Assembly: GCA_020638975.1 (NCBI GenBank)
Contig: JACKHN010000020.1
Coordinates: 1 to 64,000, forward strand
Source: Planctomycetaceae bacterium
Lineage (GTDB): Bacteria; Planctomycetota; Planctomycetia; Pirellulales; Pirellulaceae
Direction of reading: 5' to 3'
Length of the DNA stretch: 64,000 nt
The position numbers and the translations under genes are program-made. Positions 58,489 through 61,863 of the stretch are shown piece by piece. Within the stretch, counting starts at the first letter, position 1; every line of letters starts with the position of its first letter. The notes under the pieces were generated by a model. That model saw nothing but the letters and a program-made list of their open reading frames with translations. It searched no databases and had not been told where the DNA came from.

Positions 58489-61400
58489 GTGAATCACCAA
58501 CGATCTCTCGCTCCCTATTCGCCTCCTGCTACGAATCTAGTCGACAGCCTTCGTTATTGGACGGAGCAAACACCGGACAGCGTGGCGTTCTACTTCTCGG
58601 ACGGAGAGGCCGAGGAACTACGCCTGAGTTACGAGGGCTTCGATCGACGTGCGCGAGCAATTGGCGCGCACTTGCTGGAAAAGGGAATGCAAGGCGAGCG
58701 GGTCTTGCTACTCTATCCACCAGGCCTGGACTTTGTAACCGGATTCATGGGCTGCCTCTATGCGGGAGCAACGGCAGTGCCAGCCTATCCGCCCCGCCGC
58801 AATCGCTATATGTCGCGAATCGATGCGATCTCGGACGACGCACAGGCCAAAGCCGTTTTGACAGTCGCCGATGTTGCAGATCGAGTCCAAGGGATGTTGA
58901 AAGAAGCACCGGCCCTCGAAGCGGCAATGTGGATCGCAACCGATCAGATTCCTGACGATGCGGCTGACTCTTGGGTGCTTCCGAAGTTCGACGATTCGTC
59001 GCTGGCGGTGCTTCAGTATACCTCGGGTTCCACGGGCAATCCCAAGGGCGTGATGCTATCGCACGCGAACATCATTCATAATTGTCGATTGATCGTGCAT
59101 GCTTTCGAAGCTGACATCAATTCCGTCGGTATGAGTTGGCTGCCGACTTATCACGACATGGGGCTGGTAGGCGGCGTGTTGATGCCGCTATTTATTGGAC
59201 GGCCCAATATCTTGATGTCGCCCATGTCGTTCCTGCAAAAACCGGTTCGCTGGATGCGTGCCATAACTAAGTACAATGTGACGATCAGCGGCGGGCCTAA
59301 CTTTGCTTACGACTTGTGCGTAGACAAGATCACTGACGAAGAAATGGCGGGACTCGATCTCAGTAGCTGGTTAGTGGCATTCAACGGTGCGGAGCCGATT
59401 CGCTCGACCACCTTGAAAGCGTTTATCGAAAGGTTCTCTTCGGTCGGCTTCCGCCCGGAAGCTTGCTATCCCTGTTACGGCATGGCCGAAACCACGCTCA
59501 TCGTCACCGGCAGCCACCGAAAGAATCCACCGATCATTCGGAATTTTGACGGGCCAGCTCTCGACGAGCATCGTGTCGTATTCGCATCGCCAGACGAAGA
59601 GGGTTCACGCAGTCTGGTTGGCTGTGGCCATGTGCTGCCCGAAGAAGAAGTGATCATCGTCGCACCCGAGAGCCGCAAGCGATTGCCCGAACACCAGGTG
59701 GGCGAAGTCTGGGTGCGGAGCCCTAGTGTCGGCAAAGGTTACTGGAATAAGCCGGATGTCACGCAGGAAATTTTCCAAGCGGTCACATCACGAGGCGAAT
59801 CGGGATACCTTCGGACAGGCGACCTGGGGTTCATGGACGACGGCGAGTTGTTCGTCACGGGGCGGCTCAAGGATTTGATCATCGTCCGCGGCGTGAATCG
59901 TTACCCGCAAGATATCGAGCAAACCGTCGAACGAACCGATCCGCGTCTCCAGGCCGGAGCTGCGGCAGCGTTTGCAGTCGATTTAAATGGACGTGAGTGT
60001 TTGATCGTGATGACCGAAGTCGAGCGAACCCGACACAAGGACTGGTCGAGTGTCATTCAAGCAATCCGAAGTAATGTGACGCGCGAGCATGAATTGCCTC
60101 CCGACGTGATCGCGTTGGTTCGCTTCGGTTCGATGCCGAAGACCTCCAGCGGCAAGATTCAGCGTCACGCCTGCCGAGCAGCGTTCCTGGAGGACTCACT
60201 GCCCGTGGTCGCAAGATGGACCGCTTGGTCGGGTGGCGAAGAAGTTGAGGATTGGGACACAATCGTCGTCGAGTCGACCGCCGCCACGGTGACGACGCCA
60301 ACCGTTCGTCGAGAAGCTGGTTCACTGCAAGGCGAAGTGAACCTGAACGTCGCCGATGTCGTCATGCAGCACGTTCGCGAAATCGCAAAGGAACGCGCGA
60401 ATGGTCTGACGCTGGATTCGAACATCCTCGGATTGGGCTTGGATTCATTGGAACGGCTACAGCTCGCGCATGCGCTCGAAGACGCTTTCGGAGGTCGTTT
60501 CCCAGAGGACGTCTTGTCCGTGATCGAAACTTGTCGCGAAGTGACACTGGCAGTCCAGACCTACATTGGCACCAAGGCCCGCACCCGTAACCTGTCCTCA
60601 TTGACCGATCAACTCAGTCGTGAAAATCGGGATATCCAGCCTGCGGATTATCAGTTCGCGGAAATGGCCGAATACAAGCGACTGCAGCAGCAAGCCACGC
60701 TATTGTCTTTCACTGGAATTCCCAACCCGTATTTCACTCGTCACGAAGGAATTACAAACGATCGAACGGTAATCGATGGACATGAGCTGATCAGTTGGTC
60801 CAGCTACAACTACCTGGGCATGTCCGGCGACCCCGCGGTTACGGAGGCGGCGTGTGAAGCGATCAAGCGGTACGGCACGAGTGTCTCGGCGAGTCGTCTC
60901 GTCTCGGGTGAAAAAACCATTCACCGCGAACTCGAACAAGGCCTCGCGGACTTTCTGGGTGTTGATGACGCGATTACCTTGGTGGGCGGTCACTCAACGA
61001 ACGAGACGACCATTGGCCACTTGTTTGGACCGGGCGACCTCATTCTCCACGATGCGTTGGCTCACAACAGCATTATGCAAGGGGCAATCCTGTCCGGTGC
61101 GCGACGCCGGGGATTCGACCACAACGCTTGGCAGCAACTCGATACGATCCTGAAAGAAATTCGCCACGAATATCGTCGCGTGCTGGTCGTCATCGAAGGT
61201 GTGTATAGCATGGACGGCGACTACCCCGATCTGCCGAAGTTCGTGGAAGTCAAACAACGCCATAAGACCTTTCTGATGGTTGATGAAGCACACTCGATTG
61301 GCACCATGGGAGCCCACGGTCGAGGCATTAGCGAACACTTTGGTATCGACCCTCGCGAAGTGGATATCTGGATGGGTACGCTGAGCAAATCGTTCGGCAG

Positions 61401-61863
61401 TTGCGGCGGATACATCGCGGGCGGTAACGAATTAGTTCAGTATTTGAAGTACACTGCGCCTGGCTTTGTCTATAGCGTTGGCTTGTCACCTCCGAATTGT
61501 GCAGCGGCCTTGGCGTCGTTGCGTATCCTGCAAAAGGAGCCGGAGCGAGTCGCCAGAGTTCAAGCGAACTCGAAGCTATTCCTCAAACTGGCGAAAGCGA
61601 GGGGGTTAAACACCGGATTCAGTAACGGTACTCCTGTCGTACCCTTGATCATGGGCAATTCGCTGAACGCGCTGCGTCTTTCACGAGCGTTGTACGAAGA
61701 CGGCATCAATGTACAGCCGATCCTCTATCCTGCCGTCGAAGAGAAGGCGTCACGACTACGCTTTTTTATCACTTCGATGCACACCAACGAACAGATTGAG
61801 CTGACCGTGGATACGACTGCAAGACGCCTGCAGCAAATCGATCCAAGTTGTCTGAACACTTGA
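58489..61863 (+). CDS. Tri-domain fatty acyl-AMP ligase (FAAL), acyl carrier protein, and alpha-oxoamine synthase (AONS/SPT-like PLP enzyme)
   Basis: FAAL/AMP-binding: [34 protein letters not shown]: [16 protein letters not shown]: [22 protein letters not shown], and the [17 protein letters not shown]-Lys. Confidence 0.9.

Follow-up and report, generated by a model that had tools for sequence, protein, structure and literature searches.

In the ceramide pathway of proteobacteria, the acyl-ACP synthetase AasR loads the acyl carrier protein (ACP) AcpR, and the serine palmitoyltransferase (SPT), Spt, prefers acyl-AcpR over acyl-CoA (PMC11324152). The rkp-1 genes of Sinorhizobium, which lie in the order rkpA-rkpG-rkpH-(rkpI)-rkpJ (PMC7902896), reportedly make and modify a lipophilic carrier or anchor for the K-antigen polysaccharide (PMC3557214; PMC4881576). 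A third type of protein, in which an adenylation domain, a carrier domain and an α-oxoamine synthase (AOS) follow one another in a single chain (A-CP-PLP2), was tabulated in 2013 by Milano et al., who listed A3ZWL3 of Blastopirellula marina, A1ZVW4 of Microscilla marina and B1XHP8 of Synechococcus PCC 7002 and left both substrate and cluster as question marks (PMC3870968). The 64,000-nucleotide stretch analyzed here (the window), positions 1 to 64,000 of contig JACKHN010000020.1 of a Planctomycetaceae bacterium, contains a gene of this type at positions 58489..61863. Its product combines a fatty acyl-AMP ligase (FAAL), an ACP and an AOS, and is best read, to judge from its domains, as a lipid module like RkpA/RkpG, with a FAAL-ACP didomain in place of the iterative polyketide synthase (PKS). 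With a probability of roughly 0.7, the enzyme loads a fatty acid and condenses it with an amino acid, giving a long-chain 2-amino-3-ketone. The gene and the parts of its product are as follows.

58489..61863, plus strand: the fused FAAL-ACP-AOS gene, a single open reading frame (ORF) of 1124 residues with a GTG start, apparently monocistronic
58531..60219, plus strand: FAAL domain, residues 15-577, from phmmer to PDB 7r7e and the NCBIfam FAAL families
59533..59613, plus strand: FAAL-type insertion, residues 349-375 (27 residues), from a MAFFT alignment with E. coli FadD and three FAALs
60358..60537, plus strand: acyl carrier domain, residues 624-683, Pfam PP-binding at 35.5 bits against a cut-off of 20.8
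60697..61842, plus strand: AOS domain, residues 737-1118, from Aminotran_1_2, PDB matches and residue mapping

The ORF listing and the translation of the window show no internal stop in any of the 1124 codons, and a protein of a Planctomycetaceae metagenome-assembled genome (MAG) in the database, P0001, is 100% identical to the product over an equal length. All Pfam domain scores are far above the cut-offs, which excludes chance matches. The co-linear arrangement of the three domains had been proposed in a first-pass annotation made from the letters alone, and is borne out by the ORF, the Pfam domains and the motifs; the profiles named there (AMP-binding, PP-binding and Aminotran_1_2) were all found above their cut-offs. 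Its quoted motifs are in place too, namely GLDSLERLQ, a 12-residue adenylation motif and a 14-residue block around the lysine that binds pyridoxal phosphate (PLP), except that the sequence given as YRTGDLGF is really YLRTGDLGF.

Pfam finds AMP-binding at residues 23-419 (E = 1.7e-69) and AMP-dom_DIP2-like, the FAAL/DIP2-type C-terminal subdomain, at residues 462-573. Against PDB entry 7r7e the N-terminal domain scores 603 bits (phmmer), with 51% identity across 556 aligned residues; other solved FAALs follow at 467 bits (Legionella, 3kxw) and 260-360 bits (mycobacterial FadD32, FadD23 and FadD28). Every PDB match of this domain at E <= 1e-60 is a FAAL, and nothing else scores comparably. The top NCBIfam matches are also FAAL families (PRK05850 at 451 bits, FadD32 at 443 bits), and the FAAL subfamilies reach 395-451 bits compared to 155 for amino-acid adenylation, all of them under their own family-specific cut-offs. 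The adenylation motifs comprise the 12-residue P-loop-like motif of the YTSGSTGxPKG class at residues 177-188 (nt 59017-59052), YGMAETT at residue 330, YLRTGDLGF at residues 440-448 (nt 59806-59832) and, at residue 555, GKIQRH, the motif for the C-terminal catalytic lysine. An insertion of about 20 residues in the N-terminal domain is the feature that defines FAALs against acyl-CoA ligases. About 22-25 extra residues between YGMAETT and VGCG are common to the 7r7e, Rahnella and Legionella FAALs and absent from FadD; the window protein has the insertion, at residues 349-375; the first-pass annotation had suggested a check of the insertion motif. By these comparisons the domain is a FAAL, and not an acyl-CoA synthetase or an amino-acid adenylation domain. 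The carrier domain has the PKS-type GLDSL sequence within GLDSLERLQ (residues 650-658, nt 60436-60462), in which Ser653 (nt 60445-60447) is the predicted phosphopantetheine serine.

The C-terminal domain is recognized as Aminotran_1_2 at residues 766-1105 (E = 8.9e-46) and can be aligned end to end with the structures of LCB2a and SPTLC2 (about 229 bits) and of Sphingobacterium SPT (221 bits). In an AOS, the lysine forms the Schiff base, a histidine stacks on the ring, an aspartate binds the pyridine nitrogen, Thr/Ser binds the phosphate and an arginine binds the carboxylate. The catalytic residues, that is the Schiff-base lysine, both histidines, the aspartate, Thr/Ser and the arginine, are all kept on alignment with the S. 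paucimobilis SPT.

H859 of the window protein corresponds to H159 of S. paucimobilis SPT
D932 corresponds to D231
H935 corresponds to H234
T964 and S966 correspond to T262 and S264
K967 corresponds to K265
R1091 corresponds to R390

The 14-residue PLP-lysine block occupies residues 963-976 (nt 61375-61416), with the K967 codon at nt 61387-61389. The first-pass annotation had made its reading depend on the PLP lysine and the histidines, and K967, H859 and H935 are present. Two other positions differ: N100 of the SPT is replaced by Ser800 and R378 by Leu1079, the latter being Leu in the genuine Rahnella Spt as well. The amino-acid specificity cannot be read from the active-site residues in the alignment with the S. 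paucimobilis and Rahnella Spt, and we know of no residue pattern that separates Ser from Ala or Gly specificity in these enzymes.

The scores of the AOS domain against the NCBIfam models are given below.

bioF (TIGR00858): 343.7 bits, cut-off 426.45, nominally the best AOS model
SPT (three equivalog models): 307.5, 270.9 and 210.1 bits, cut-offs 640, 500 and 670
KBL: 288.8 bits, cut-off 460
CqsA (NF005526): 151.4 bits, cut-off 428

When the AOS domain alone was searched by tblastn against annotated plasmids and replicons, the best matches (52-58% identity over the whole domain) were AOS proteins or domains located after a single-module type I PKS, in the six contexts described below. Elsewhere the identity is 35-37% (plant LCB2 and human SPTLC2), 33% (E. 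coli Kbl), 32% (Rahnella and S. paucimobilis Spt) and 31% (E. coli BioF). A neighbour-joining tree of 36 sequences and 388 columns places the window domain in an RkpG-type clade of 19 sequences, which was recovered in 200 of the 200 bootstraps; the validated bacterial Spt are placed elsewhere. The clade is sister to the eukaryotic SPT subunits (human SPTLC2 and Arabidopsis LCB2a) with 92% bootstrap support in this small taxon sample. As far as sequence can tell, the AOS domain is of the RkpG type, and not an SPT, BioF, KBL or CqsA. The analogy with SPT and CqsA made in the first-pass annotation thus stands for the type of reaction, but the domain fails the SPT, BioF, KBL and CqsA thresholds and belongs to a different clade.

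The locus of S. meliloti comprises a 2502-residue PKS, a 471-residue AOS, a short-chain dehydrogenase/reductase (SDR), a capsule biosynthesis gene and KpsF. The AOS is RkpG, identified by gene order and size, the sequence record carrying no rkp names. On a Pseudomonas plasmid, PKS and AOS genes lie within a Kps-type capsule locus, and in Microbulbifer PKS, AOS and SDR genes adjoin polysaccharide export and ABC genes; both loci are equivalents of the Sinorhizobium rkp-1 module. Planktothrix has a PKS with a terminal ACP-AOS and GT39 glycosyltransferases on its flanks, Streptomyces a PKS-AOS beside MMPL and LCP genes, and Bacillus mycoides an ACP-AOS protein accompanied by a glycosyltransferase, a methyltransferase, an ABC transporter, a ketosynthase (KS) and a phosphopantetheinyl transferase (PPTase). 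The ACP-AOS didomain of the window protein is co-linear, in unbroken alignments, with the B. mycoides protein (43% over 502 residues) and with the C terminus of the Planktothrix PKS (48% over 495 residues). Because ACP-AOS is found co-linear in PKS, Bacillus and fused versions, it seems to have evolved as one unit, with either a PKS or a FAAL apparently grafted on.

With the rkp-1 module (RkpA, a PKS/fatty acid synthase; RkpG, the AOS; RkpH, an SDR) the window enzyme shares the AOS clade (52-58% identity, 100% bootstrap), a carrier-bound acyl donor and, presumably, a lipophilic amino-ketone or amino-alcohol for the cell surface (PMC3557214). The RkpA/WcbR-type iterative PKS that is the usual partner of the RkpG clade was not found in the protein or in the scanned part of the window, however, and the FAAL-ACP didomain takes its place. 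The acyl chain would therefore come from a preformed fatty acid, whereas in rkp-1 it comes from a 2500-residue PKS, and every part of the window enzyme is on one polypeptide. Furthermore, no RkpH-like SDR, KpsS/KpsC-like or ABC exporter genes lie near the fused gene; RkpH-type SDR and capsule export/Kdo-linker genes are missing from the window and from eight further Pirellulales loci, with the exception of one weak SDR match, in locus L020.

The PKS-terminal AOS of Planktothrix and Streptomyces resemble the window enzyme in their co-linear ACP-AOS (48-57% identity) and in releasing the chain through amino-acid condensation; RedL and SxtA are further examples of PKS-AOS. Unlike these, the fused protein has no KS, acyltransferase (AT) or reductive domains, so that it would not extend the chain and would be a minimal loader and off-loader. 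Neither were KS or AT domains found in the Pfam scans of the window, which covered most of its large ORFs on either side of the 27.7-33 kb block. The FAAL-ACP loading didomains of cyanobacterial PKS and non-ribosomal peptide synthetase (NRPS) systems have a FAAL with 51% identity (7r7e) and the insertion, and an ACP directly downstream. Entry 7r7e is deposited as 'polyketide synthase'; we take it to be the loading domain of the Synechococcus olefin synthase. In the cyanobacterial systems the ACP passes its chain to a ketosynthase, whereas the ACP of the window protein would pass it to a PLP enzyme.

Equivalently, the fused protein is, by analogy, a single-chain functional counterpart of AasR-AcpR-Spt with an RkpG-type condensing domain. 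AasR-AcpR-Spt, found with CerR and CerS in alpha-, beta- and gamma-proteobacteria, likewise has a FAAL-type synthetase, a dedicated ACP and an acyl-ACP-dependent AOS (PMC11324152). It consists of separate proteins, in an operon with a reductase, whereas the window has a single chain; its Spt is a validated serine enzyme from another AOS clade, whereas the window AOS misses the SPT thresholds. A full-length tblastn search detected an unfused cassette on plasmids of Rahnella, Klebsiella, Pseudomonas and E. coli, with the order FAAL, NAD-epimerase (CerR), ACP and AOS and a divergent N-acyltransferase. The Rahnella cassette matches 92% of the length of the fused protein at about 32% identity, and its AOS, at 398 bits to S. 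wittichii SPT, is a genuine Spt. Thus the logic of the fused protein also exists in the form of separate proteins.

From the domain identities, catalytic residues, clade, conservation and contexts that were observed, we infer the chemical steps, the chain length, the amino acid and the role of the product. The FAAL would adenylate a free, probably long-chain fatty acid, and the acyl group would be handed to a carrier protein, not to CoA, as with other FAALs, and would end up as a thioester bound to the phosphopantetheine arm at Ser653, in the ACP of the fused protein itself. The AOS would build the external aldimine of the amino acid on PLP freed from K967. Claisen condensation with the acyl-S-ACP thioester and decarboxylation would follow, with release of a long-chain 2-amino-3-ketone, a precursor of the sphingoid-base type. 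The activation, self-loading and decarboxylative condensation predicted in the first-pass annotation do follow from the domain families. The product would probably be reduced and further decorated by enzymes encoded elsewhere in the genome, to end as a conserved envelope amino-lipid or as the lipid anchor of a Pirellulales surface glycoconjugate; this cellular role is held with much lower confidence than the chemistry.

The fusion is widespread. More than 120 database clusters share the four Pfam domains and are 62% identical or more over the full length, and all the names that they carry are Planctomycete. The orthologue of Pirellula staleyi DSM 6068, on a finished 6.2-Mb chromosome, is 64% identical over the full length. 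Such tight conservation fits a core lipid function. In a wider survey of 1.8 billion cluster representatives, dozens more 50%-identity clusters (1050-1150 residues), from several phyla, match residues ~10 to ~1115 at 37-56% identity, and in longer homologues the ACP is separated from the AOS by inserted PKS domains. Named cyanobacterial members come from Okeania, Moorea, Symploca, Phormidium and Nostoc. By these numbers and by the table of 2013, the architecture is more common than the first-pass annotation had implied. The proteins in that table are of identical architecture, and one is from the related Planctomycete B. marina, the likeness being one of architecture and not of alignment; no substrate, cluster type or function was given to them (PMC3870968). 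The FAAL-ACP-AOS architecture itself is therefore already known and is common in databases, and no characterized member was found in the literature searched. Nothing relevant was found that pairs a FAAL or acyl-AMP ligase with an AONS, oxoamine synthase, SPT or 8-amino-7-oxononanoate synthase, and a 2025 review on Planctomycete secondary metabolism makes no mention of AOS or NRPS-like enzymes.

The genomic surroundings were compared in a sample of 12 Planctomycete or Planctomycete-like loci, nine of which were used for all-against-all ORF clustering. A peptide-pattern scan of genome contigs, with patterns close to the query, returned about seven Planctomycete loci together with unrelated AMP-binding genes and is not a phylum-wide census. 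The recurrent neighbours in the 12 loci are only of the synteny type (PQQ propeller, BBP7, DUF1080, AP endonuclease and RF-1), and in the nine clustered loci only a PQQ propeller, a BBP7 gene and a DUF1080 gene recur, with no operon partner. When CerR, bCerS, RkpH and the cyanobacterial partner genes (SDR, sulfotransferase and acyl-CoA dehydrogenase) were searched by tblastn, the window gave no match, and the window and eight Pirellulales loci together gave a single weak SDR match, the one in L020.

Some of the relatives have more informative contexts. In L100, a Pirellulales-like relative, psd (phosphatidylserine decarboxylase) and pssA (a CDP-alcohol phosphatidyltransferase) lie 2-4 kb upstream of the fused gene (5769-7657), and directly 3' of it is a frameshifted, degraded NAD-epimerase (13473-14507), the N terminus of which is 36% identical to Rahnella CerR. 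In L102 (1-9452), a metagenome locus of unknown taxon, the fused protein is 50% identical to that of the window and its gene is flanked by a divergent acyl-CoA dehydrogenase, a fatty-acid desaturase and a stand-alone ACP; the locus also contains an amino-acid permease, a class III aminotransferase fused to a shikimate-DH-like domain and two GMC oxidoreductases. The cyanobacterial cluster, present in Phormidium sp. (L096, 10001-20632) and Okeania sp. (L098, 10001-20047), has a divergent TetR gene followed by FAAL-ACP-AOS, a sulfotransferase, an SDR, an acyl-CoA dehydrogenase, an SBF-family transporter and an alpha/beta hydrolase, which suggests a pathway ending in a sulfated long-chain amino-alcohol. 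The cyanobacterial orthologues have about 44% overall identity to the window protein (49% in the AOS domain), and in the Nostoc homologues a dehydrogenase is fused between the FAAL and the ACP. The cyanobacterial, L102 and L100 contexts support an amino-ketone that is later reduced and decorated. The acyl chain may be desaturated while carrier-bound, as the L102, cyanobacterial and Nostoc contexts hint, although they do not reveal the Pirellulales product.

Two further arrangements were noted among the relatives. In P. staleyi (L001, 7117-9435) a 772-residue protein with two tandem class I methyltransferase domains is encoded on the same strand, directly upstream of the orthologue, and this gene was not seen in the other loci examined. 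On the Legionella lytica plasmid pLlyPCM2298_1 (L006, 8857-13728) a stand-alone AOS is followed by a 970-residue "phosphosulfolactate synthase" with a FAAL N terminus and then by a 2-phosphosulfolactate phosphatase, an order that suggests a sulfonolipid-type pathway.

A number of points weigh against the amino-ketone reading. The chain length was guessed solely from the likeness to long-chain FAALs. The curated equivalog thresholds for the FAAL and AOS families are all missed, so that substrate assignments are not transferable to the fused protein. The AOS tree is a neighbour-joining tree of a limited sequence sample. No chemically defined product of any RkpG-type AOS or of any member of the fused family was found in the literature searched, nor was a chemical structure for the rkp-1 lipid molecule. 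No reductase, acyltransferase or capsule-export gene is conserved near the fused gene in the 12 loci, and the pathway after the amino-ketone, and even the need for one, is conjecture in the Pirellulales. The product classes offered in the first-pass annotation (sphingolipid-like, sulfonolipid-like or signalling) are not decidable from sequence.

Foremost among the other explanations is that the enzyme is a genuine SPT, which would convert L-serine and palmitoyl-S-ACP into 3-ketosphinganine for a Planctomycete ceramide pathway, with the reductase and ceramide synthase encoded elsewhere. The best solved-structure matches of the AOS domain (LCB2a, SPTLC2 and Sphingobacterium SPT) and the sister position of its clade to LCB2/SPTLC2 point in this direction, and FAAL, ACP and Spt are an established input module in proteobacterial ceramide clusters. 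In addition, Spt-like genes have been reported in Planctomycetota MAGs from the Black Sea (PMC11334938), and the epimerase of L100 may be the remnant of a CerR-like reductase. Yet the scores are far from the SPT cut-offs, the identity to validated bacterial Spt is 32%, and the domain falls in another, fully supported clade. There is no bCerS or CerR in the window or in the flanks of the eight Pirellulales loci searched, where the frameshifted epimerase of L100 and the weak match in L020 are the only reductase-like neighbours. Moreover, the closest relatives with an informative context are in capsule and PKS loci, not in ceramide loci. A genuine SPT is thus unlikely.

An improbable alternative is a diffusible small molecule, either an alpha-hydroxyketone or amino-ketone signal like those of CqsA/LqsA, or a secondary metabolite of the amino-ketone, amino-alcohol or pyrazine kind. 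The reaction class is shared with CqsA, but the score against the CqsA model (151 bits) is far below the cut-off of 428, and an identity with CqsA/LqsA was rejected. The cyanobacterial orthologues are in a seemingly regulated biosynthetic cluster, with its divergent TetR, sulfotransferase and transporter. According to antiSMASH, Pirellulaceae genomes have 'minor conserved' NRPS-like clusters (PMC12992917), and the fused gene may be among them. The broad and tight conservation in the Pirellulales, with no accessory biosynthetic or export genes nearby, is atypical of a strain-level metabolite, however, and the fused gene has no conserved receptor or kinase gene as a neighbour.

It is very improbable that the protein belongs to biotin synthesis, as a pimelate-activating ligase joined to a carrier and a BioF that makes 8-amino-7-oxononanoate. 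The bioF model is nominally the top AOS model and JGI pipelines name orthologues '8-amino-7-oxononanoate synthase', but the score is below the cut-off, the identity to E. coli BioF is 31% compared to 52-58% to RkpG-type enzymes, and the ligase has the FAAL insertion and 51% identity to the loading domain of a long-chain FAAL system. In none of the 12 loci are bioA, bioB or bioD found near the fused gene, and the BioF identity was rejected.

An assembly or annotation artefact, or a decaying gene, conceivable for a MAG and raised in the first-pass annotation as a possible split of the ORF, is effectively refuted by full-length single-ORF orthologues in more than 100 independent assemblies and on the finished P. 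staleyi chromosome and by the intact catalytic residues.

As to the role of the predicted 2-amino-3-ketone, it is tentatively suggested that the fused protein is the committed enzyme for an undescribed sphingoid-type amino-lipid, which would be a core envelope component or a glycoconjugate anchor across the Pirellulales, perhaps together with the 59-residue protein and the BBP7 barrel encoded next to it. Planctomycete envelopes have been little described chemically, and no gene of the phylum has been linked to a sphingoid or related amino-lipid; a conserved, self-contained predicted 2-amino-3-ketone synthase points to a Planctomycete amino-lipid. If the reading is correct, the enzyme, being a single soluble chain, would give a first experimental handle on RkpG-type products, a question open since the rkp descriptions of the 1990s. 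With a fatty acid, ATP and an amino acid as its sole requirements, and no 2500-residue PKS, it therefore offers the simplest route to the amino-acid specificity of the RkpG clade. That clade would then be the closest bacterial sister of the catalytic subunit of eukaryotic SPT. Its relevance extends past the Planctomycetes, since rhizobia, Pseudomonas and Microbulbifer carry it in capsule loci, and cyanobacteria and actinobacteria in PKSs. The chemistry is of the textbook kind, with no sequence hint of a new mechanism, and the protein is a fusion variant of known systems; its value is that of a one-gene route to the unsolved product of the fused family and of the RkpG-type clade.

The features next to the fused gene in the window are as follows.

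62011..62190, plus strand: conserved 59-residue ORF, 147 nt downstream of the fused gene, with the core LTESxVERSF...LRPESPLRHRL
62222..62255, no strand assigned: GC-rich hairpin with a 15-bp stem, a likely terminator between the fused gene and the convergent BBP7 gene, from the promoter/terminator scan
62283..63521, minus strand: BBP7-family beta-barrel gene, convergent with the fused gene (Pfam BBP7, E = 9e-10)

The fused gene is preceded by 284 bp of non-coding DNA, with GGAG about 11-14 nt before the GTG start, and its surroundings have a GC content of 0.55-0.56, the same as the remainder of the window. The promoter/terminator scan found no sigma-70-like promoter for the gene, and neither riboswitches nor other RNA elements came out of an Rfam scan of 58000-62400. 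The region has no more terminator-like sites than the shuffled controls, which makes the evidence for the hairpin at 62222..62255 weak. Upstream lie a gene of the DUF1080/3-keto-disaccharide-hydrolase family and a PHP-like gene; downstream are the small ORF and then the BBP7 gene, the first large gene on that side. Apart from the fused gene, nothing lipid-related was detected among the large ORFs scanned. The Pfam scans revealed no SDR, epimerase, ceramide-synthase-like, acyl-CoA dehydrogenase or sulfotransferase gene and no PPTase gene. Together with the tblastn result this agrees with the first-pass annotation, which had seen no tailoring genes adjacent.

The 59-residue ORF matches no Pfam family. 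Six of the 12 Planctomycete loci, with fused proteins that are only about 56% identical, have it between the fused gene and the BBP7 gene. The database contains 1117 homologues, and among the 120 listed nearly all have 57-62 residues and the names are only Planctomycete. At least 14 homologues are on contigs identical in length to contigs with fused-gene orthologues, including contigs of 3.5-7.6 kb. The homologue of Roseimaritima sediminicola is located away from the fused gene, however, and in L104 the small gene stands in inverted orientation next to an ACP-AOS gene. The ORF is thus a recurrent neighbour, the pairing is not obligatory, and the functional link is unproven and a lead only. BBP7 homologues occupy the same position in L003, L016, L017, L100 and L101, making six syntenic loci in all; the BBP7 gene is a syntenic neighbour with an unproven link to the enzyme.

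Further combinations of domains or neighbours were noted in other parts of the window. A 904-residue protein (49424..52138, minus strand) has an N-terminal Ser/Thr kinase (residues 72-331) and an Hsp70/actin-like ATPase (residues ~404-893). An 860-residue ABC-2 transporter (37572..40154, minus strand) carries an N-terminal FHA domain in the same polypeptide, and its gene is adjoined by that of a 599-residue protein consisting entirely of HEAT repeats (40166..41965, minus strand). A deoxyhypusine-synthase-family gene (2373..3662, minus strand) and elongation factor P (34666..35229, plus strand) are present in the one window.

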